Source: Escherichia coli (GTDB lineage Bacteria > Pseudomonadota > Gammaproteobacteria > Enterobacterales > Enterobacteriaceae). From it: 64,000 bases of DNA. The notes beneath the pieces are model-generated. The model saw only the letters and a list, made by a program, of their open reading frames with translations, was not told the origin of the DNA and searched no databases. The translations under genes and the position numbers were made by a program. Numbering within the stretch: the stretch's first letter is position 1; each line of letters begins with the position of its first letter. Positions 16,800-30,183 of this stretch are shown here, piece by piece. The stretch is from assembly GCF_030384885.1 (NCBI RefSeq), contig NZ_CP128613.1; one strand, 5' to 3'.

Positions 16800-17003
16800 A
16801 TGTTTGGTAACTTAGGACAGGCAAAAAAATATCTCGGCCAGGCGGCAAAGATGTTGATTGGCATTCCAGACTACGACAACTACGTCGAGCATATGAAGAC
16901 CAACCATCCCGACAAGCCGTACATGAGCTATGAAGAATTCTTCCGCGAACGCCAGAACGCGCGCTACGGCGGCGATGGTAAAGGCGGTATGCGCTGTTGT
17001 TAA
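16800..17003 (+). CDS. yjiX: Small protein YjiX (DUF466)
   Basis: 67-aa ORF ([21 protein letters not shown]...) recognised as YjiX; conserved position after btsT. Confidence 0.85.
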
Positions 17004-17013
17004 TGGAGAGAGC

Positions 17014-17970
17014 ATGAACCCGATTGCAGTTACCCTACTCACCGGTTTTTTAGGCGCAGGCAAAACCACCCTGCTGCGCCATATTCTTAATGAACAGCAC
17101 GGCTACAAAATTGCCGTGATTGAAAACGAATTCGGCGAAGTCTCCGTTGATGATCAACTGATTGGCGACCGCGCCACGCAGATCAAAACGCTGACCAACG
17201 GCTGCATCTGTTGTTCGCGCTCCAACGAGCTGGAGGACGCGCTACTCGACCTGCTGGATAATCTCGACAAGGGCAATATTCAGTTCGACCGTCTGGTCAT
17301 TGAATGCACAGGCATGGCCGATCCCGGCCCGATTATTCAGACCTTTTTCTCCCATGAGATTTTATGCCAGCGTTACCTGCTGGACGGCGTGATTGCGCTG
17401 GTGGATGCGGTACATGCCGATGAGCAGATGAACCAGTTCACCATCGCCCAGTCACAGGTTGGCTACGCCGACCGCATTCTGCTGACCAAAACCGACGTCG
17501 CAGGCGAAGCAGAAAAACTGCGTGAACGCCTGGCGCGCATCAACGCCCGCGCACCGGTCTACACCGTCACCCACGGCGACATCGATCTGGGCCTGCTGTT
17601 CAACACCAACGGTTTTATGCTGGAAGAAAACGTCGTCAGCACCAAACCACGTTTCCACTTTATCGCGGATAAACAAAACGATATTTCGTCGATTGTGGTG
17701 GAACTGGATTACCCGGTAGATATCAGCGAAGTTTCCCGCGTGATGGAAAACCTGCTGCTGGAGTCGGCGGATAAACTGCTACGTTACAAAGGGATGCTGT
17801 GGATTGACGGCGAACCTAATCGCCTGTTGTTCCAGGGCGTCCAGCGCCTCTACAGCGCCGACTGGGACCGCCCGTGGGGCGATGAAAAACCGCATAGCAC
17901 TATGGTGTTTATCGGGATTCAGCTGCCGGAGGATGAGATTCGGGCAGCGTTTGCGGGGTTGAGGAAGTAA
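17014..17970 (+). CDS. yjiA: GTPase YjiA (COG0523 / CobW-like G3E metallochaperone family)
   Basis: 318 aa from ATG preceded by GGAGAG; P-loop GFLGAGKTT and GCICCS metal-binding motif; the track ORF starts further upstream and overlaps yjiX. Confidence 0.92.
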   Translation: MNPIAVTLLTGFLGAGKTTLLRHILNEQHGYKIAVIENEFGEVSVDDQLIGDRATQIKTLTNGCICCSRSNELEDALLDLLDNLDKGNIQFDRLVIECTGMADPGPIIQTFFSHEILCQRYLLDGVIALVDAVHADEQMNQFTIAQSQVGYADRILLTKTDVAGEAEKLRERLARINARAPVYTVTHGDIDLGLLFNTNGFMLEENVVSTKPRFHFIADKQNDISSIVVELDYPVDISEVSRVMENLLLESADKLLRYKGMLWIDGEPNRLLFQGVQRLYSADWDRPWGDEKPHSTMVFIGIQLPEDEIRAAFAGLRK

Positions 17971-18015: not shown

Positions 18016-18930
18016 TCACTCAAAATAGTCCATATCCAGTTTCGGCACCTTCAACAAACGTGAAGAAACCCCTACTTCGTTTTCGATCATTAAGTGCACC
18101 AGGCGTTCCCCATCAACCAACACCATACCCTCGACGGATTGGGCAAAGTCACGCGCCTGAGAAGTAAATCCAGAAGTGGTAATAAACACCCCACGTTTCG
18201 CTTTTTGCCCAGCCAGTGCGCCGTAAAATGCCTGTAATTCTGGCCTGCCTACAGTATTCTGCCAACGTTTTGCCTGAACATAAACTTTCTCCAGGCCAAG
18301 TTTATCAAGCGATATCACACCATCGATGCCACCATCTCCAGTACCGCCAACACGCTGCAAATCATCACGGTGGCCGCCATACCCCAGGCGATGCAAAACA
18401 TCCAGAACAATGACTTCAAAGCGCGAAGGAGAAACCTGCAATAAGTTTTCCAGAACCTCATCAGCCACCGCATCACGAAGCTCTTTTAGCGCCTGATCTA
18501 ACCGATCGTCCGGGCTGCTCTTTGCAAGTTCTTCATGATCGGGAGAGTCGGCTTTCGGATCTAAATCGACGGCATCCGGCCGTGACTTAAGTTTGACATT
18601 CACAAAAGCGAAGGCCAGATGGTTCGTCTCCTGCTCCGTCATTGGCTGGGGATGAGACGCAACCCAGTCAAAACCCGCAGGAGTCAGGCACCATTTGCCA
18701 CGCGACAAACTTTGCGACAACCCGGCACGTTTTAAACGGTCATGCGCCCAGCCTGCACGATTTTTATAAACAAGTTGTCCGCTGGTAATGACTTTCGCTC
18801 GCTGGCTGTCATCCAGTCCTAATGCATCCGCGGCAGCCTCATGAACATCACGCGCGGCTGCACCTTCCGGTTTTGTTGCCAGATAACGCAGAACAGGTTC
18901 AATAAATTTGTCATAGGTAGGAACCGTCAT
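18016..18930 (-). CDS. mrr: Mrr modification-dependent restriction endonuclease
   Basis: 304-aa ORF recognised as Mrr (MTVPTYDKFIEPVLRYL...); N-terminal winged helix and C-terminal Mrr nuclease domain. Confidence 0.92.
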   Translation of the reverse strand: MTVPTYDKFIEPVLRYLATKPEGAAARDVHEAAADALGLDDSQRAKVITSGQLVYKNRAGWAHDRLKRAGLSQSLSRGKWCLTPAGFDWVASHPQPMTEQETNHLAFAFVNVKLKSRPDAVDLDPKADSPDHEELAKSSPDDRLDQALKELRDAVADEVLENLLQVSPSRFEVIVLDVLHRLGYGGHRDDLQRVGGTGDGGIDGVISLDKLGLEKVYVQAKRWQNTVGRPELQAFYGALAGQKAKRGVFITTSGFTSQARDFAQSVEGMVLVDGERLVHLMIENEVGVSSRLLKVPKLDMDYFE

Positions 18931-19117
18931 AGTACATCCTTGCAGAATCAGGTAGATGTTTTTCGGCTACTATAACACTACCAAAATAGACGAACACGTT
19001 AGAAATGAGTCAGTTGCTGTGACCGTGGTCATTGCCCGGAAAGGTACAGAAAGCTAAGATGAGATGTTATGGGCCTTAAATATTTGGACAGGCCCGCACA
19101 GCAATGGATTAATAACA

Positions 19118-22100
19118 ATGATGAATAAATCCAATTTTGAATTCCTGAAGGGCGTCAACGACTTCACTTATGCCATCGCCTGTGCGGCGGAAAATAACTA
19201 CCCGGATGATCCCAACACGACGCTGATTAAAATGCGTATGTTTGGCGAAGCCACAGCGAAACATCTTGGTCTGTTACTCAACATCCCCCCTTGTGAGAAT
19301 CAACACGATCTCCTGCGCGAACTCGGCAAAATCGCCTTCGTTGATGACAACATCCTCTCTGTATTTCACAAATTACGCCGCATTGGTAACCAGGCGGTGC
19401 ACGAATATCATAACGATCTCGACGATGCCCAGATGTGCCTGCGGCTCGGGTTCCGCCTGGCTGTCTGGTACTACCGTCTGGTCACCAAAGATTATGACTT
19501 CCCGGTGCCGGTGTTTGTGTTGCCGGAACGTGGTGAAAACCTCTATCACCAGGAAGTGCTGACGCTAAAACAACAGCTTGAACAGCAGGCGCGAGAAAAA
19601 GCGCAGACTCAGGCGGAAGTGGAAGCGCAACAGCAGAAGCTGGTTGCCCTGAACGGCTATATCGCCATTCTGGAAGGCAAGCAGCAGGAAACCGAAGCGC
19701 AAACCCTGGCTCGCCTTGCGGCACTGGAAGCACAGCTCGCCGAGAAGAACGCGGAACTGGCAAAACAGACCGAACAGGAACGTAAGGCTTACCACAAAGA
19801 AATTACCGATCAGGCCATCAAGCGCACACTCAACCTTAGCGAAGAAGAGAGTCGCTTCCTGATTGACGCGCAACTGCGTAAAGCAGGCTGGCAGGCCGAC
19901 AGCAAAACCCTGCGCTTCTCCAAAGGCGCACGCCCTGAACCCGGCGTCAATAAAGCCATTGCTGAATGGCCGACCGGCAAAGATGAAACGGGTAATCAGG
20001 GCTTTGCGGATTATGTGCTGTTTGTCGGCCTCAAACCCATCGCGGTGGTAGAGGCGAAACGTAAAAATATCGACGTTCCCGGCAAGCTCAATGAGTCTTA
20101 TCGCTACAGCAAATGCTTCGATAATGGCTTCCTGCGGGAAACCTTGCTTGAGCACTACTCACCGGATGAAGTGCATGAAGCGGTGCCGGAGTATGAAACC
20201 AGCTGGCAGGACACCAGCGGCCAACAACGGTTTAAAATCCCCTTCTGCTACTCGACCAACGGGCGCGAATACCGCGCAGCAATGAAAACTAAAAGCGGCA
20301 TCTGGTATCGCGACGTGCGTGATACCCGTAATATGTCGAAAGCCTTACCCGAGTGGCATCGCCCGGAAGAGCTGCTGGAAATGCTCGGCAGTGAACCGCA
20401 AAAACAGAATCAGTGGTTTGCCGATAACCCTGGCATGAGCGAGCTGGGCCTGCGTTATTATCAGGAAGATGCCGTCCGCGCGGTTGAAAAGGCAATCGTC
20501 AAGGGTCAACAAGAGATCCTGCTGGCGATGGCGACCGGTACCGGTAAAACCCGTACGGCAATCGCCATGATGTTCCGCCTGATCCAGTCCCAACGTTTTA
20601 AACGCATTCTCTTCCTTGTGGATCGCCGTTCTCTTGGCGAGCAGGCGCTGGGGGCGTTTGAAGATACGCGTATTAACGGCGACACCTTCAACAGCATTTT
20701 CGACATTAAAGGTCTGACGGATAAATTCCCGGAAGACAGCACCAAAATTCACGTTGCCACCGTACAGTCGCTGGTGAAACGCACCCTGCAATCAGATGAA
20801 CCAATGCCGGTGGCCCGTTACGACTGTATCGTCGTTGACGAAGCGCATCGCGGCTATATTCTCGATAAAGAGCAGACCGAAGGCGAGCTGCAGTTCCGCA
20901 GCCAGCTGGATTACGTCTCTGCCTACCGTCGCATTCTCGATCACTTCGATGCGGTAAAAATCGCCCTCACCGCCACCCCGGCGCTGCATACGGTGCAGAT
21001 TTTCGGCGAGCCGGTTTACCGTTATACCTACCGTACCGCGGTTATCGACGGTTTTCTGATCGACCAGGATCCGCCGATCCAAATCACCACCCGCAACGCC
21101 CAGGAGGGAGTTTATCTCGCCAAAGGCGAGCAGGTTGAGCGCATCAGCCCGCAGGGGGAAGTGATCAACGACACCCTGGAAGACGATCAGGATTTTGAGG
21201 TCGCCGACTTTAACCGTGGCCTGGTGATCCCGGCGTTTAACCGCGCCGTCTGTAACGAACTCACCAACTACCTTGACCCGACCGGGTTACAAAAAACGCT
21301 GGTCTTCTGCGTCACTAATGCTCATGCCGATATGGTGGTGGAAGAGCTGCGTGCCGCGTTCAAGAAAAAGTATCCGCAACTGGAGCACGACGCGATCATC
21401 AAGATCACTGGTGATGCCGATAAAGACGCGCGCAAAGTGCAGACCATGATCACCCGCTTCAATAAAGAGCGGCTGCCCAATATCGTGGTAACCGTCGACC
21501 TGCTGACGACCGGCGTCGATATTCCGTCGATCTGTAATATCGTGTTCCTGCGTAAAGTACGCAGCCGCATTCTGTACGAACAGATGAAAGGCCGCGCCAC
21601 GCGCTTATGCCCGGAGGTGAATAAAACCAGCTTTAAGATTTTTGACTGTGTCGATATCTACAGCACGCTGGAGAGCGTCGACACCATGCGTCCGGTGGTG
21701 GTGCGTCCGAAGGTGGAACTGCAAACGCTGGTCAACGAAATTACCGATTCAGAAACCTATAAAATCACCGAAGCGGATGGCCGCAGTTTTGCCGAGCACA
21801 GCCATGAACAACTGGTGGCGAAGCTCCAGCGCATCATCGGCCTGGCCACGTTTAACCGTGACCGCAGCGAAACGATAGATAAACAGGTGCGTCGTCTGGA
21901 TGAGCTATGCCAGGACGCGGCGGGCGTGAACTTTAACGGCTTCGCCTCGCGCCTGCGTGAAAAAGGGCCGCACTGGAGCGCCGAAGTCTTTAACAAACTG
22001 CCTGGCTTTATCGCCCGTCTGGAAAAGCTGAAAACGGACATCAACAACCTGAATGATGCGCCGATCTTCCTCGATATCGACGATGAAGTGGTGAGTGTAA

Positions 22101-22630: not shown

Positions 22631-22830
22631 CACGTATACACTTCATCCTTCAGGCTGCCTCTGCGTTGGCTGCGCTCGTTCACCCCGGTCACGTACTTCT
22701 GTACGCTCCCGGGGATTCACTCACTTGCCGCCTTGATGCAACCTGAATGATTTTGTGTATATTACCCTCGGCAATTTCTTCTTCTGCGGCCCGATGAATT
22801 TGGGCCGCTGCTTAATTTACGGAACTCACA

Positions 22831-24420
22831 ATGAACAATAACGATCTGGTCGCGAAGCTGTGGAAGCTGTGCGACAACCTGCGCGATGGCGGCGTTTCCT
22901 ATCAAAACTACGTCAATGAACTCGCCTCGCTGCTGTTTTTGAAAATGTGTAAAGAAACCGGACAGGAAGCGGAATACCTGCCGGAAGGCTACCGCTGGGA
23001 TGACCTGAAATCCCGTATCGGCCAGGAGCAGTTGCAGTTCTACCGTAACCTGCTGGTACATCTGGGCGCCGACAATCAAAAGCTGGTGCAGGCAGTGTTC
23101 CAGAACGTCAACACCACCATTACCCAGCCGAAACAGTTGACCGAGCTGGTCAGCAATATGGATTCACTGGACTGGTACAACGGCGCGCACGGTAAGTCGC
23201 GCGATGACTTCGGCGATATGTACGAAGGGCTGTTGCAGAAGAACGCGAATGAAACCAAGTCTGGCGCGGGCCAGTACTTCACCCCGCGTCCGCTGATTAA
23301 AACCATTATTCATCTGCTGAAACCGCAGCCGCGTGAAGTGGTGCAGGACCCGGCGGCAGGTACGGCGGGCTTTTTGATTGAAGCCGACCGCTATGTTAAG
23401 TCGCAAACTAATGATCTGGACGACCTTGATGGCGACACGCAGGATTTCCAGATCCACCGCGCGTTTATCGGCCTCGAACTGGTGCCCGGCACCCGTCGTC
23501 TGGCACTGATGAACTGCCTGCTGCACGATATTGAAGGCAACCTCGACCACGGCGGCGCAATCCGTCTGGGCAACACCCTGGGCAGCGACGGTGAAAACCT
23601 GCCGAAAGCGCATATTGTCGCCACTAACCCGCCGTTTGGCAGCGCCGCAGGCACCAACATTACCCGCACCTTTGTTCACCCGACCAGCAACAAACAGTTG
23701 TGCTTTATGCAGCATATTATCGAAACGCTGCATCCCGGCGGTCGTGCGGCGGTCGTGGTGCCGGATAACGTACTGTTTGAAGGCGGCAAAGGCACCGACA
23801 TCCGTCGTGACCTGATGGATAAGTGTCATCTGCACACCATTCTGCGTCTGCCGACCGGTATTTTTTACGCGCAGGGCGTGAAAACCAACGTGCTGTTCTT
23901 TACCAAAGGGACGGTGGCGAATCCGAATCAGGATAAGAACTGTACCGACGACGTGTGGGTGTACGACCTGCGTACCAATATGCCGAGCTTCGGCAAGCGC
24001 ACGCCGTTTACCGACGAGCATTTGCAGCCGTTTGAGCGCGTGTATGGCGAAGACCCGCACGGTTTAAGCCCGCGCACTGAAGGGGAATGGAGTTTTAACG
24101 CCGAAGAGACGGAAGTTGCCGACAGCGAAGAGAACAAAAACACCGATCAGCATCTGGCCACCAGCCGCTGGCGCAAGTTCAGCCGCGAGTGGATCCGCAC
24201 CGTGAAATCCGATTCGCTGGATATCTCCTGGCTGAAAGATAAAGACAGCATCGACGCCGACAGCCTGCCGGAGCCGGATGTGTTAGCGGCAGAAGCGATG
24301 GGTGAACTGGTACAGGCATTGGGTGAACTGGATGCGCTGATGCGTGAACTGGGGGCGAGCGATGAGGCGGATGCACAGCGTCAGTTGCTGGAAGAAGCGT
24401 TTGGTGGGGTGAAAGAATGA
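22831..24420 (+). CDS. hsdM: Type I restriction-modification N6-adenine DNA methyltransferase M subunit
   Basis: 529-aa ORF (MNNNDLVAKLWKLCDNLRDGG...) with the NPPF catalytic motif; recognised as EcoKI-type HsdM. Confidence 0.93.
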   Translation: MNNNDLVAKLWKLCDNLRDGGVSYQNYVNELASLLFLKMCKETGQEAEYLPEGYRWDDLKSRIGQEQLQFYRNLLVHLGADNQKLVQAVFQNVNTTITQPKQLTELVSNMDSLDWYNGAHGKSRDDFGDMYEGLLQKNANETKSGAGQYFTPRPLIKTIIHLLKPQPREVVQDPAAGTAGFLIEADRYVKSQTNDLDDLDGDTQDFQIHRAFIGLELVPGTRRLALMNCLLHDIEGNLDHGGAIRLGNTLGSDGENLPKAHIVATNPPFGSAAGTNITRTFVHPTSNKQLCFMQHIIETLHPGGRAAVVVPDNVLFEGGKGTDIRRDLMDKCHLHTILRLPTGIFYAQGVKTNVLFFTKGTVANPNQDKNCTDDVWVYDLRTNMPSFGKRTPFTDEHLQPFERVYGEDPHGLSPRTEGEWSFNAEETEVADSEENKNTDQHLATSRWRKFSREWIRTVKSDSLDISWLKDKDSIDADSLPEPDVLAAEAMGELVQALGELDALMRELGASDEADAQRQLLEEAFGGVKE

Positions 24421-25805
24421 GTTTCAACTCAACATCAAAAGAATTAATTGAGCAAAATATCAATGGGTTACTTTCAAGCCATGAGAGCTGGTTACGTATT
24501 CCAATGGATTCCGTAGCAAACATCACAAACGGTTTTGCTTTTAAGTCGGCAGAATTTAATAATCGTAAAGATGGTGTACCATTAATTAGAATTCGTGATG
24601 TTCTTAAAGGTAGTACATCGACTTATTACTCGGGGCAAATTCCTGAGGGATATTGGGTATATCCCGAAGACTTAATCGTGGGAATGGATGGTGATTTTAA
24701 TACAACTATATGGCGCTCGGAGCCCGCTCTGTTAAATCAACGAGTATGTAAAATCGAAGTTCAGGAAGACAAATACAATAAAAGATTTTTCTATCATGCC
24801 TTACCAGGATATTTATCCGCAATCAATGCAAATACGTCCTCGGTTACTGTAAAGCATCTTTCTTCCAGGACACTTCAAGATACCCTACTTCCGTTGCCAC
24901 CACTTGCCGAACAAAAAATCATCGCTGAAAAACTCGATACGCTGCTGGCGCAGGTAAACAGCACCAAAGCACGTCTTGAGCAAATCCCACAAAACCTGAA
25001 ACGTTTTCGTCAGGCGGTGCTTCATGTTGCAGTGAGCGGGAAATTAACTGAAAAATGGCGATTAGAAAATGCAACTTTAGAAAACTCATACGAATGGAAG
25101 GTGCAATCTTTATCTGATCTTGGTGTTTTAGCTCGAGGTAAATCTAAACATCGACCTAGAAACGATCCTCGCCTATTTGGGGATAAGTATCCATTTATTC
25201 AAACAGGTGAAGTTGCCAATAGTTCAGGAAGAATTAAAAGAGCAAATAAATTTTATAGTGAGTTTGGTTTATCACAAAGCAAGCTATTTCCAAAAGATAC
25301 CTTATGTATAACTATTGCTGCCAACATTGCGGATACAGCCATATTAGAGATTGAGGCATGTTTCCCGGACAGTGTCGTTGGTTTCATTTCTGATAAAGAT
25401 AAATCTCATGTATCCTTTGTGAAGTATCTAATTGATGTTAACAAAGATAATCTTGAAGCATTTGCACCAGCTACAGCACAAAAAAATATTAACTTAAAGG
25501 TTTTAAACGAACTTAAACTTCCTATTCCTGATATTAAAGAACAAGCCGAAATCGTTCGCCGCGTCGAGCAACTCTTCGCCTACGCCGACACCATAGAAAA
25601 ACAGGTCAACAACGCCCTGGCCCGCGTCAACAACCTGACGCAATCCATCCTGGCAAAAGCGTTCCGTGGTGAACTCACCGCCCAGTGGCGGGCCGAAAAC
25701 CCGGATTTGATCAGCGGAGAAAACAGCGCCGCCGCGTTGCTGGAAAAAATCAAAGCTGAACGCGCAGCCAGCGGGGGTAAAAAAGCCTCACGTAAAAAAT
25801 CCTGA
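24417..25805 (+). CDS. hsdS: Type I restriction-modification specificity subunit; EcoKI-family scaffold with non-K-12 target-recognition domains
   Basis: 462-aa ORF; ATG overlaps the hsdM stop (ATGA); central and C-terminal conserved regions (LPPLAEQKIIAEKLDTLLAQV..., EQAEIVRRVEQLFAYADTIEKQ...) match the EcoKI family as I recall it, but the two variable regions do not, and they are AT-rich. Confidence 0.9.
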   Translation: MSFNSTSKELIEQNINGLLSSHESWLRIPMDSVANITNGFAFKSAEFNNRKDGVPLIRIRDVLKGSTSTYYSGQIPEGYWVYPEDLIVGMDGDFNTTIWRSEPALLNQRVCKIEVQEDKYNKRFFYHALPGYLSAINANTSSVTVKHLSSRTLQDTLLPLPPLAEQKIIAEKLDTLLAQVNSTKARLEQIPQNLKRFRQAVLHVAVSGKLTEKWRLENATLENSYEWKVQSLSDLGVLARGKSKHRPRNDPRLFGDKYPFIQTGEVANSSGRIKRANKFYSEFGLSQSKLFPKDTLCITIAANIADTAILEIEACFPDSVVGFISDKDKSHVSFVKYLIDVNKDNLEAFAPATAQKNINLKVLNELKLPIPDIKEQAEIVRRVEQLFAYADTIEKQVNNALARVNNLTQSILAKAFRGELTAQWRAENPDLISGENSAAALLEKIKAERAASGGKKASRKKS

Positions 25806-25818
25806 ACATTATTTTCTG

Positions 25819-25842
25819 GCGCACCTTTCCGGTGCGCTTTTT
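25819..25842 (+). terminator. Rho-independent terminator of the hsdMS operon
   Basis: GCGCACC-TTTCC-GGTGCGC followed by TTTTT. Confidence 0.65.
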
Positions 25843-25939
25843 ATTATTTCACGCCAATCATAACCCACATAAATATATTTAAATCATTCCAGAAATTGCC
25901 CATTTTATTCTATTTTTAGCTGGACTTTCCCCATATTTA

Positions 25940-25959: not shown

Positions 25960-26045
25960 TTAGCGCGGTGCGGATGTGCGCCAACACACCCGCACCGCTA
26001 ATCACAATCCCTATTTCTAAGGAATAGTAATCATGACTGACACGC
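25960..26045 (-). ncRNA. symR: Approximate position of SymR antisense sRNA (overlaps symE 5-prime UTR and start codon)
   Basis: Placed from established knowledge of the symE/symR locus, not from a sequence signal I can delimit exactly. Confidence 0.35.
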
Positions 26046-26374
26046 ATTCTATTGCACAACCGTTCGAAGCAGAAGTCTCCCCGGCAAATAACCGTCAATT
26101 AACCGTGAGTTATGCGAGTCGCTACCCGGATTACAGCCGTATTCCCGCCATCACCCTGAAAGGTCAGTGGCTGGAAGCCGCCGGTTTTGCCACCGGCACG
26201 GCGGTAGATGTCAAAGTGATGGAAGGCTGTATTGTCCTCACCGCCCAACCACCCGCCCCCGAAGAGAGCGAACTGATGCAGTCACTGCGCCAGGTGTGCA
26301 AACTGTCAGCGCGTAAACAAAAGCAGGTGAAGGAGTTTATTGGGGTGATTGCCGGTAAACAGAAAGTCGCGTAA
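26033..26374 (+). CDS. symE: SymE, SOS-induced toxin-like protein (AbrB-fold, type I TA-like module)
   Basis: 113-aa ORF ([38 protein letters not shown]...) recognised as SymE. Confidence 0.92.
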
Positions 26375-26535
26375 CAGCGTTTACTCCCGGTTAACCACCG
26401 GGAGCCTTCCACTGACTCAATAGAAACTTTCCCCCTCAGTAAATATTTACCAGTCTGATTTTGCAGTAAAAATCTATTGTTTCAGTACGTTGCGAAAGCG
26501 ATAATAGAGGCTTAGCAATGAGGAAGGCATATCTT

Positions 26536-27915
26536 ATGGAATCTATTCAACCCTGGATTGAAAAATTTATTAAGCAAGCACAGCAACAACGTTCGCAATC
26601 CACTAAAGATTATCCAACGTCTTACCGTAACCTGCGAGTAAAATTGAGTTTCGGTTATGGTAATTTTACGTCTATTCCCTGGTTTGCATTTCTTGGAGAA
26701 GGTCAGGAAGCTTCTAACGGTATATATCCCGTTATTCTCTATTATAAAGATTTTGATGAGTTGGTTTTGGCTTATGGTATAAGCGACACGAATGAACCAC
26801 ATGCCCAATGGCAGTTCTCTTCAGACATACCTAAAACAATCGCAGAGTATTTCCAGGCAACTTCAGGTGTATATCCTAAAAAATACGGACAGTCCTATTA
26901 CGCCTGTTCCCAAAAAGTCTCACAGGGTCTTGATTATACCCGGTTTGCCTCCATGCTGGACAACATAATCAACGACTATAAATTAATATTTAATTCTGGC
27001 AAGAGTGTTATTCCACCTATGTCAAAAACTGAATCATACTGTCTGGAAGATGCGTTAAATGATTTGTTTATCCCTGAAACCACGATAGAGACGATACTCA
27101 AACGATTAACCATCAAAAAAAATATTATCCTCCAGGGGCCGCCCGGCGTTGGAAAAACCTTTGTTGCACGCCGTCTGGCTTACTTGCTGACAGGGGAAAA
27201 GGCTCCGCAACGCGTCAATATGGTTCAGTTCCATCAATCTTATAGCTATGAGGATTTTATACAGGGCTATCGTCCGAATGGTGTCGGCTTCCGACGTAAA
27301 GACGGTATATTTTACAATTTTTGTCAGCAAGCTAAAGAGCAGCCAGAGAAAAAGTATGTTTTTATTATAGATGAAATCAATCGTGCCAATCTCAGTAAAG
27401 TATTTGGCGAAGTGATGATGTTAATGGAACATGATAAACGAGGTGAAAACTGGTCTGTTCCCTTAACCTACTCCGAAAACGATGAAGAACGATTCTATGT
27501 TCCGGAGAATGTTTATATTATCGGTTTAATGAATACTGCCGATCGCTCTCTGGCCGTTGTTGATTATGCCCTGCGCAGACGATTTTCTTTCATAGATATT
27601 GAGCCAGGTTTTGATACGCCACAGTTCCGGAATTTTTTACTGAATAAAAAAGCAGAACCTTCATTTGTTGAATCTTTATGCCAAACAATGAACGAGTTAA
27701 ACCAGGAAATCAGCAAAGAGGCCACTATCCTTGGGAAAGGATTCCGCATTGGGCATAGTTACTTCTGCTCCGGGTTGGAAGATGGCACATCTCCTGATAC
27801 GCAATGGCTTAAGGAAATTGTGATGACGGATATCGCCCCTTTACTCGAAGAATATTTCTTTGATGATCCCTATAAACAACAGATATGGACCGACAAATTA
27901 TTAGGTGACTCATAG
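26536..27915 (+). CDS. mcrB: McrB, GTPase (AAA+) subunit of the 5-methylcytosine-dependent restriction enzyme McrBC
   Basis: 459 aa from ATG with AGGAAGG upstream (MESIQPWIEKF...); P-loop GPPGVGKT; AT-rich composition. Confidence 0.93.
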   Translation: MESIQPWIEKFIKQAQQQRSQSTKDYPTSYRNLRVKLSFGYGNFTSIPWFAFLGEGQEASNGIYPVILYYKDFDELVLAYGISDTNEPHAQWQFSSDIPKTIAEYFQATSGVYPKKYGQSYYACSQKVSQGLDYTRFASMLDNIINDYKLIFNSGKSVIPPMSKTESYCLEDALNDLFIPETTIETILKRLTIKKNIILQGPPGVGKTFVARRLAYLLTGEKAPQRVNMVQFHQSYSYEDFIQGYRPNGVGFRRKDGIFYNFCQQAKEQPEKKYVFIIDEINRANLSKVFGEVMMLMEHDKRGENWSVPLTYSENDEERFYVPENVYIIGLMNTADRSLAVVDYALRRRFSFIDIEPGFDTPQFRNFLLNKKAEPSFVESLCQTMNELNQEISKEATILGKGFRIGHSYFCSGLEDGTSPDTQWLKEIVMTDIAPLLEEYFFDDPYKQQIWTDKLLGDS

Positions 27916-28961
27916 TGGAACAGCCCGTGATACCTGTCCGTAATATCTATTACATGCTTACCTATGCATGGGGTTATTTACAGGAAATTAAGCAGGCCGA
28001 CCTTGAAGCCATTCCCGGTAACAATCTTCTTGATATCCTGGGGTATGTATTAAATAAAGGGGTTTTACAGCTTTCACGCCGAGGGCTTGAGCTTGATTAC
28101 AATCCTAATACAGAAATCATTCCTGGCATCAAAGGGCGAATAGAGTTTGCTAAAACAATACGCGGCTTCCATCTTAATCATGGGAAAACCGTCAGTACGT
28201 TTGATATGCTTAATGAAGACACGCTGGCTAACCGAATTATAAAAAGCACATTAGCCATGTTAATTAAGCATGAAAAGTTAAACTCAGCCATCAGAGATGA
28301 AGCTCGTTCACTTTATAGAAAATTACCGGGCATTAGCACTCTTCATTTAACTCCACAGCATTTCAGCTATCTGAATGGCGGAAAAAATACGCGTTATTAT
28401 AAATTCGTTATAAGTGTCTGCAAGTTCATCGTCAATAATTCTATTCCAGGTCAAAACAAAGGACACTACCGTTTCTATGATTTTGAAAGAAACGAAAAAG
28501 AGATGTCATTACTTTATCAAAAGTTTCTTTATGAATTTTGCCGCCGTGAATTAACGTCTGCAAACACAACCCGCTCTTATTTAAAATGGGATGCATCGAG
28601 CATATCGGATCAGTCACTTAATTTGTTACCTCGAATGGAAACTGACATCACCATTCGCTCATCAGAAAAAATACTTATCGTTGACGCCAAATACTATAAG
28701 AGCATTTTTTCACGACGAATGGGCTCAGAAAAATTTCATTCTCAAAATCTTTATCAACTGATGAATTACTTATGGTCGTTAAAGCCTGAAAATGGCGAAA
28801 ACATAGGGGGCTTATTAATATACCCCCACGTAGATACCGCAGTGAAACATCGTTATAAAATTAATGGCTTCGATATTGGCTTGTGTACCGTCAATTTAGG
28901 TCAGGAATGGCCGTGTATACATCAAGAATTACTCGACATTTTCGGTGAATATCTCAAATAA
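27915..28961 (+). CDS. mcrC: McrC, nuclease subunit of McrBC
   Basis: 348-aa ORF with GTG start overlapping the mcrB stop (MEQPVIPVRNIYYMLTY...); recognised as McrC. Confidence 0.93.
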   Translation: MEQPVIPVRNIYYMLTYAWGYLQEIKQADLEAIPGNNLLDILGYVLNKGVLQLSRRGLELDYNPNTEIIPGIKGRIEFAKTIRGFHLNHGKTVSTFDMLNEDTLANRIIKSTLAMLIKHEKLNSAIRDEARSLYRKLPGISTLHLTPQHFSYLNGGKNTRYYKFVISVCKFIVNNSIPGQNKGHYRFYDFERNEKEMSLLYQKFLYEFCRRELTSANTTRSYLKWDASSISDQSLNLLPRMETDITIRSSEKILIVDAKYYKSIFSRRMGSEKFHSQNLYQLMNYLWSLKPENGENIGGLLIYPHVDTAVKHRYKINGFDIGLCTVNLGQEWPCIHQELLDIFGEYLK

Positions 28962-29353: not shown

Positions 29354-30183
29354 CCAGTCATGGAAAGGCCGGTTAGCAGTCCATTCAAAAAATGCGTTCC
29401 TGTTTCATCATCTAACGGTATTGGAAACTCGCTTCGCCAGGTAGGGTGAACCTTATCAAGCTGTTGTACTGGTTCTTTGTGATTTATTAGGTTGTGAGTA
29501 AGTACTAAGGAATTGAGGTTATCAGCCATATGACTGATAAGTTCTACAGAGGTATCTTCGCTAAAAACAGTAGGCAGCGCTGATTTTTCTATGACAGCTC
29601 TTGCCAGCGAAAGGGCTGAAAAACCTGACTGCTTTGCTTGCTCATATTGTCCAAGGATCCTGGAGAAAACAGCCAGAAAGCGACTGTCTGATTCTTTGAG
29701 TAGCCGGAAAGGTAAACCACCTTCACTGAATAATGTTCCGAGAAAATTGCGTCGTTCAGATTCATAAAATCGAATTGGGCGCAGCCAGTAATCTTCCATC
29801 CCTTTCGGTACGATAGTACCAAGCTCTGTGGCGGTGAATGAAATCCCTATTTTTTTATATATAGGGTCCCACGTCCATCCGCATTGCCGTTCATAATCCC
29901 TGCGGTACCACTCAGAGCAAAAAAGAACAAAACAGGCAGCAAAGTCCCTATTACATATATTAGATTGTGATTGACCGACTGCACGGAGTAGCTGCGTTAA
30001 TTGGGTATATTCATCATTGGTTGCATGATATTCATAAAGAGGACGGCCATCCGGTTGTCTCAACCCTCTAAGATTCACAAAGTTACTTAGCCAGGAAGTA
30101 CATTTTACCCATGAAATGTATTCTGATTGACCCAAAGCAAGCTCCTTAGAGATAAAAGATACAAAAACAAAACCCCACAACAT
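29350..30183 (-). CDS. Hypothetical protein (277 aa) in the mcrC-yjiS variable slot
   Basis: ORF-track frame; AT-rich relative to flanking core genes; no obvious Shine-Dalgarno; no family recognised by eye. Confidence 0.5.

Follow-up and report, generated by a model that had tools for sequence, protein, structure and literature searches.

The hsd locus and its family

The analysis presented here concerns a 64,000-nucleotide stretch of Escherichia coli DNA (the window; contig NZ_CP128613.1 of assembly GCF_030384885.1) and, within it, the type I restriction-modification genes hsdR, hsdM and hsdS, the last of which encodes the specificity subunit and is our main subject. The hsdR-hsdM-hsdS locus is complete and lies between mrr and symE-mcrBC, in the immigration control region typical of E. 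coli (Table 1). The start codon of hsdS overlaps the TGA stop codon of hsdM in the tetranucleotide ATGA at 24417-24420, which is the EcoKI arrangement, in which the two genes are described as translationally coupled (PMC3510504).

When considering the family to which these genes belong, we took as type IA a system in which HsdM and HsdR are about 90% or more similar to the family prototypes, with the location of the locus, the gene order, the hsdM/hsdS overlap and the conserved parts of HsdS as additional marks. HsdM aligns with the M protein of EcoKI (2y7c_B/2ar0_A) over its full length at about 98% identity (1205 bits with 2y7c_B, residues 1-529 on 1-529) and scores 765 bits with the PADLOC MTase_I model PDLC03026. 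HsdR scores 1740 bits, over residues 2-1169, with the EcoKI-type equivalog NF008521 (cut-off 729), and the PADLOC REase_I model PDLC03042 spans residues 1-1170 of its 1170; the EcoAI-family model NF046051 stays under its threshold for HsdR (273.8 versus a cut-off of 550). The PADLOC type I models match all three subunits end to end. The position in the immigration control region, the hsdR-hsdM-hsdS order and the ATGA overlap are those of type IA loci, and HsdS has the conserved central and C-terminal regions around two target recognition domains (TRDs). Judging by these comparisons, the three genes make up a complete restriction-modification system of type IA (the EcoKI family), in line with the initial annotation, which had recognized HsdR and HsdM as members of the EcoKI family.

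A mosaic specificity subunit

The hsdS gene starts with ATG and runs through 462 codons without a frameshift or an internal stop (sequence ...GAATGAGT...), so that the frameshift which the initial annotation had named as a possible refutation is absent. The protein comprises two Pfam Methylase_S (PF01420) domains, at residues 28-191 (E 1.1e-18) and 226-401 (E 1.4e-20). In the PDB, the S protein of EcoKI (2y7c_A) gives the best sequence match (E 1.1e-84), with near-complete identity at residues ~162-214 and ~371-462 and a weak alignment outside these segments. In a four-way protein alignment of HsdS from the window, from K-12 (EcoKI), from REL606 (EcoBI) and from E. coli HKUOPY1, the blocks P162-T211 and E375-K461 are invariant. 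The limits of the two TRDs were derived from this alignment together with a nucleotide identity profile.

The resulting picture agrees on all points with what had initially been read off the sequence, namely conserved central and C-terminal regions and two AT-rich variable regions (about 24417-24880 and 25050-25520) that were unlike their K-12 counterparts and were ascribed to TRD exchange. The profile places these regions at about 24417-24895 and 25041-25535. Their GC content, 0.378 for TRD1 and 0.337 for TRD2, is below that of the conserved hsdS segments (0.51-0.56) and of hsdR and hsdM (0.54-0.56). Whereas the window's system shares with EcoKI the HsdM, the class of HsdR, the conserved regions of HsdS and the ATGA overlap, both TRDs differ, and the overall identity of the two HsdS proteins is 45%. 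With EcoBI, the type IA system of E. coli B, it has in common the family, the locus, the gene order, the HsdS framework and TRD1, but not TRD2, for which the nucleotide identity in a three-way alignment is 33-48% and the protein alignment is poor. With the uncharacterized hsdS alleles of HKUOPY1 and A30, the similarity is reversed: TRD2 and everything downstream of it are shared at 96.7-96.8% nucleotide identity, but TRD1 is of another type (MSAEKLPEGW...), and hence the 5' half-site should be a different one. Thus, hsdS is a mosaic: as far as the central conserved helix it resembles EcoBI, and from there onward HKUOPY1/A30, with high identity to both alleles across about 24900-25000.

Recombination within the conserved central helix of hsdS is a source of hybrid specificities, a mechanism established in the 1980s. 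The specificities of StySQ and StySJ arose in this way (PMC3874165), and the hsdS described here would be a natural recombinant of the same kind, in which the TRD1 of EcoBI is joined, within the central helix, to a TRD2 that is rare in E. coli. The M2S1 complex should then methylate, and the R2M2S1 complex restrict, a bipartite site with the 5' half read by TRD1 and the 3' half by TRD2. Since two TRD sources are combined, the specificity should differ from those of both EcoKI (AAC N6 GTGC) and EcoBI (TGA N8 TGCT), and we consider it very probable that this HsdS is, indeed, such a hybrid type IA subunit. The protein scores 376.6 bits with the EcoKI HsdS equivalog NF007278, below the cut-off of 662 that marks isospecificity with EcoKI, as expected for a subunit of different specificity. 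Neither is it isospecific with EcoBI, in as much as only one of the two TRDs matches; TRD2 being unlike that of EcoBI, the 3' half TGCT cannot be assumed.

The first domain and the 5' half-site

TRD1 is nearly that of EcoBI. Specifically, residues 1-185 are 95.7% identical to HsdS of E. coli B REL606 (96.8% at the nucleotide level), and within the domain seven amino acids differ, at residues 21, 23, 29, 45, 68, 108 and 112. Among 5,426 complete E. coli genomes, the sample for all counts of this kind given here, TRD1 is present in 113, mostly as part of genuine EcoBI alleles. The site of EcoBI is TGA(N8)TGCT (PMC2490747, Table 2; PMC3874165, Table 1), and, by a rule that goes back to the StySP/SB/SQ/SJ hybrids, the 5' half-site is set by the N-terminal TRD and the 3' half-site by the C-terminal TRD (PMC3874165). 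Because of the near-identity to the EcoBI domain and this division of labor, TRD1 can be predicted, with high confidence, to read TGA. Accordingly, the initial verdict on the recognition sequence, that it is both different from the known ones and unknown, stands in its first part, as the pair of TRD1 and TRD2 matches no characterized allele, but not in its second, because the TGA half is predictable from a TRD1 of the EcoBI type, a match which that annotation had missed.

A more distant relative of TRD1, with 30% identity (E 3e-14), is the region of the C-terminal TRD in the HsdS of E. coli CFT073 (L096, 30382-32151), an EcoAI-type protein whose 3' half-site is GTCA, that is, TGAC on the opposite strand. 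This likeness looks like a cross-family relationship between TRDs in inverted positions, such as that of StySKI and EcoR124I.

The seven substitutions might, in principle, change or relax the reading of the 5' half so that it is no longer plain TGA, and degeneracy is, indeed, sensitive to small changes in a TRD, as illustrated by GTGC in EcoKI versus GTRC in StySPI (PMC3874165, Table 1). We nevertheless regard such an effect as highly unlikely: the substitutions are few and mostly conservative (S/I, E/D, P/S, A/S, S/N, T/A, R/C), this family of TRD1 variants is found in E. coli in combination with at least three different TRD2s, and the resemblance to the CFT073 domain suggests that the reading of TGA withstands a far larger divergence.

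The second domain: distribution and relatives

Unlike TRD1, TRD2 is rare: even a sensitive blastn search found it in just 6 of the complete E. coli genomes. Four of these (2013C-4282, 2020CK-00188, Z142-3 and R32_14_1F) carry the identical full-length hsdS allele, and the other two are HKUOPY1 and A30, discussed above. Outside E. coli, the nearest relatives among the GTDB species representatives share 67-76% identity with TRD2 and come from Pseudomonas fulva, P. zanjanensis, Vreelandella/Halomonas, Aliivibrio, Buttiauxella, and metagenome-assembled genomes of Methylovulum and Caedibacter. No close or recent donor was detected in this set (at most 76% identity) or among plasmids (at most 56%). 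The uncharacterized HsdS proteins of Buttiauxella massiliensis and P. fulva have EcoKI-like conserved regions, a TRD2 at 68-69% identity to the window's and different N-terminal TRDs, which indicates that this domain circulates in type IA frameworks of other Gammaproteobacteria. A partial protein labeled as E. coli (P0019), with 58% identity to TRD2, was dropped from consideration because its contig, of 746 nt, has no match in any complete E. coli genome.

The TRD2 family is large, with 2,423 proteins in the database at E<=1e-10, and several motifs (RGKSKHRPRND, PFIQTG, CITIAANIA, CFPDS.VGF and AQKNINL) are near-invariant across Proteobacteria, Firmicutes, Cyanobacteria and Bacteroidota. Wherever a complete open reading frame (ORF) was recovered, in 20 HsdS from chromosomes and plasmids, the domain is the C-terminal TRD. 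In the HsdS of Citrobacter freundii plasmid p6_A (L088, 3471-4895), a domain of this family occupies the N-terminal TRD position, at about residues 11-160. Members also occur in S subunits encoded by the lactococcal plasmids p3107E, pUCCL631C and pLLWG2D; the main text of PMC12418389 lists no motifs.

The 3' half-site

Only one member of the TRD2 family is tied here to an experimentally determined motif, namely the C-terminal TRD of the S subunit whose gene lies beside slr6095 on plasmid pSYSX of Synechocystis PCC 6803; this TRD is 47% identical to TRD2 (E 6e-39, residues 198-349 of 394). Upon knockout of slr6095, sequencing by the single-molecule real-time (SMRT) method revealed the loss of methylation at GGA(N7)TTGG / CCAA(N7)TCC, the site of M.Ssp6803V, in which the methylated A of CCAA is the fourth base (PMC6105098). 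This enzyme is a member of another type I family, with other conserved helices, a GGA-type N-terminal TRD, a 7-bp methylation interval and a plasmid location; the domain that it shares with the window's HsdS is, however, in the C-terminal position in both.

The two half-sites were allotted to the two Synechocystis TRDs by elimination. The type IB HsdS of E. coli 536 is reported to be 99% identical to S.EcoAO83I, an Eco377I isoschizomer with the site GGA(N8)ATGC, and ATGC has been assigned to TRD2 of 536/EcoAO83I via the 72% identity of this domain to TRD2 of EcoEI (PMC2481252). As ATGC belongs to the second domain, GGA is left for the first. By BLASTP, the N-terminal TRD of the Synechocystis protein is homologous to this GGA-reading domain of 536 (40% identity, E 1e-30), which leaves TTGG to its C-terminal TRD; neither the latter nor the window's TRD2 has a BLASTP match to the HsdS of 536. 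On the strength of these similarities, we predict TTGG as the half-site of TRD2 with moderate confidence. CCAA/TTGG half-sites recur in the type I motifs of Clostridium chauvoei, Flexibacter litoralis, Leptolyngbya PCC 6406, Methylophilus, Desulforegula, Archangium and Pseudomonas aeruginosa (strain LYSZa2 among others), and this recurrence in many phyla fits a widespread, conserved TRD family. Motifs of this class include GAT N8 TTGG of S.Fli6794I, CAAY N8 TTGG of S.Lsp6406ORFNP, CCAA N7 TTC of C. chauvoei CCH01_22110 and CCAA N7 CTC of M.PaeZa2I. The list of Desulforegula motifs includes CCAA(N6)TCC. In addition, the HsdS of Aliivibrio finisterrensis (L010, 3467-4780) has an N-terminal TRD 41% identical to the GGA-type domain of Synechocystis and a C-terminal TRD 70% identical to TRD2 of the window, and thus this pairing of TRD families is common to a marine vibrio and a cyanobacterial plasmid.

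The main rival of the TTGG assignment retains the hybrid architecture but supposes that TRD2 has diverged in specificity from its Synechocystis homologue and reads another half-site, which would yield TGA(N7-8)XXXX. An identity of 47% to the sole characterized relative is, indeed, a long distance, a family of this size could harbor several specificities, and outside E. coli none of the GTDB species representatives comes closer than 76%. Still, the family is unusually conserved across phyla, with long common motifs, and the GGA-type TRD has kept its specificity between E. coli 536 and Synechocystis at an identity of 40%, so that we deem a different half-site rather unlikely. In other comparisons, TRD2 does not match the HsdS of UTI89 (CCA/CTTC) or CFT073 (GAG/GTCA), the similarity of TRD1 to the CFT073 C-terminal TRD being the sole match of the window's TRDs to these two proteins, a protein search with the Synechocystis C-terminal TRD returned no named characterized organism among the matches listed (short proteins only), and the species in the supplements of Blow et al. 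do not overlap with those bearing TRD2 homologues.

It might also be argued that the Synechocystis motif should be oriented as CCAA(N7)TCC, in which case TRD2 would read TCC (GGA on the other strand) and the complete site would be TGA(N8)TCC. The strand orientation of a SMRT-derived motif is, after all, arbitrary (PMC3874165), TCC is the half-site of the C-terminal TRD iii of the pneumococcal SpnIV, which is paired with a TGA-reading N-terminal TRD (TGA N7 TCC), and an HsdS of Streptococcus mitis joins a C-terminal TRD of the TRD2 family to an N-terminal TRD distantly related to that of EcoBI. Yet a search with this S. mitis protein gave no S. pneumoniae protein in the best 120 matches, so that the link to the tvr TRD iii is not established, and the homology of the Synechocystis N-terminal TRD to the GGA-reading domain of 536, along with the lack of similarity between TRD2 and the 536 protein, speaks for the opposite orientation. 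We consider the TCC alternative improbable.

The spacer and the predicted complete site

Given the half-sites TGA and TTGG, the length of the spacer follows, provided that both are right, from the geometry of the family: in every type IA enzyme listed by Loenen et al. (Table 1 of PMC3874165), the methylated bases are separated by 8 bp. The spacer would be N8 because, with this length, 8 bp separate the two bases expected to be methylated, namely the A of TGA and the base opposite the first T of TTGG. The site that we tentatively predict for the enzyme is, accordingly, 5'-TGA(N8)TTGG-3' / 5'-CCAA(N8)TCA-3'.

Some points weigh against this prediction. The assignment of TRD2 rests on one characterized homologue at 47% identity, and TRD specificity can change at higher identities than that. 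The occurrence of the site in the window is uninformative: TGA(N8)TTGG is found 4 times, versus about 7.5-10 expected, and the counts for other spacer lengths, 3-10, do not differ.

Is the system active?

The system is apparently functional, as far as activity in vivo can be gathered from its genes. Alternatively, for all that its genes are intact, the system could be silent in this strain or deficient in restriction, and the allele would then have no phenotype. What could be taken as a hint of this is that residue 905 of HsdR is Arg here but Cys in E. coli 2013C-4282 (the underlying single nucleotide polymorphism, SNP, is at 21830), and that a consensus promoter scan of the + strand upstream of hsdM returned nothing convincing. 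All three ORFs, however, are full length with near-complete profile coverage, the ATGA coupling of hsdM and hsdS is preserved, and the type IA systems that K-12 and UTI89 have at the same locus are known from the literature to be constitutively active. Moreover, four genomes have hsdS in 100% identical form although their flanking sequences diverge by about 1%, a contrast that speaks for purifying selection. A silent system thus appears very unlikely.

Carriers of the allele and implications

The window is nearly identical to the corresponding region of E. coli 2013C-4282, with two SNPs in about 23 kb, at 21830 and 38399. This strain is stx1-positive and has been assigned to Escherichia cryptic clade I (PMC10100065). 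Over the 22-kb flank (14000-38409 checked), the other three genomes with the identical hsdS show 98.7-99.2% identity, compared to about 97.1% for ordinary E. coli, so the allele may be largely confined to one lineage. The exact HsdS protein is public on 273 contigs, where it is annotated as "restriction endonuclease subunit S" only. A literature search for WP_072004068, 2013C-4282 and 2020CK-00188 found only phylogenomic papers and no methylome of the carrier strains. Neither did we find a paper that prints TGA(N8)TTGG or its complement: searches of the literature with TGANNNNNNN, NNNNNNNTCA, TGAN7/8 and CCAANNNNNN led only to EcoBI and unrelated motifs. Since 2013C-4282 was assembled from PacBio data, REBASE may already record the motif.

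Conceptually, this is a routine new allele produced by TRD shuffling, one more combination of type IA specificities, that illustrates the established mechanism of hsdS hybrid formation and raises no new question. It is quite possible that the allele encodes TGA(N8)TTGG or some other TGA-containing specificity that is undescribed for characterized enzymes, and that it could serve as a barrier, specific to one lineage, against the exchange of DNA with E. coli sensu stricto; the latter notion derives from the few carriers among complete genomes, which cluster around cryptic clade I. Knowledge of the site would be of modest practical value, in that it tells which motif to avoid or pre-methylate when DNA is to be transformed or conjugated into carrier strains, among them stx1-positive isolates of cryptic clade I such as 2013C-4282.

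Features of the region

The coordinates of the hsd genes, of the segments of hsdS and of the neighboring genes are compiled in Table 1.

Table 1. Features of the hsd locus and its surroundings, in window coordinates
Feature	Coordinates	Strand	Basis or remark
yjiA	16930-17970		ORF list; near-identical record CP027579 (2013C-4282) annotated alike by RefSeq
mrr	18016-18930	-	ORF list and RefSeq annotation of CP027579
hsdR, restriction/translocase subunit, 1170 aa	19118-22630	+	ORF, NF008521, PADLOC, RefSeq annotation of 2013C-4282
hsdM, methyltransferase subunit, 529 aa	22831-24420	+	EcoKI M match, PADLOC MTase_I
hsdS, specificity subunit, 462 aa	24417-25805	+	ORF, two PF01420 domains, EcoKI S match
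TRD1, N-terminal target recognition domain, EcoBI type	24417-24895	+	Predicted half-site TGA
Central conserved region, first dimerization helix	24896-25040	+	Holds the putative recombination joint
TRD2, C-terminal target recognition domain	25041-25535	+	Predicted half-site TTGG (other strand CCAA)
C-terminal conserved region, second dimerization helix and tail	25536-25805	+	Same as EcoKI over E375-S462 except position 377
Terminator-like hairpin and T-run (GGCGCACC...GGTGCGC, GC-rich)	25818-25848	+	13 nt past the hsdS stop; consensus scan
symE	26033-26374		ORF list and RefSeq annotation of CP027579
mcrB and mcrC	about 26518-28961		ORF list and RefSeq annotation of CP027579
Helicase remnant, last 111 codons	29018-29353	-	
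yjiT remnant, N-terminal 277 codons	29350-30183	-	

The hairpin beyond hsdS is a plausible terminator of the operon, although the evidence is weak, as the matches of the scan in this region do not exceed the expectation from shuffled sequence. The same scan detected another terminator-like hairpin immediately upstream of hsdM, at 22786-22818. The frame of hsdR is open for 18 codons further upstream, to an ATG at 19064 (MLWALNIWTGPHSNGLIT-MMNKSNF...); RefSeq and the family models place the start at 19118.

Beyond mcrBC, the window lacks 8,528 bp that are present in 2013C-4282 and in all other top-matching genomes, with the junction at 29374-29375. The missing segment comprises most of a 6.3-kb gene for a DEAD/DEAH helicase (2,114 amino acids) and most of yjiT. 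The arrangement of the two remnants presumably resembles the yjiT/yjiV pseudogene state of K-12. The remnants are joined at a microhomology of 2 nt.

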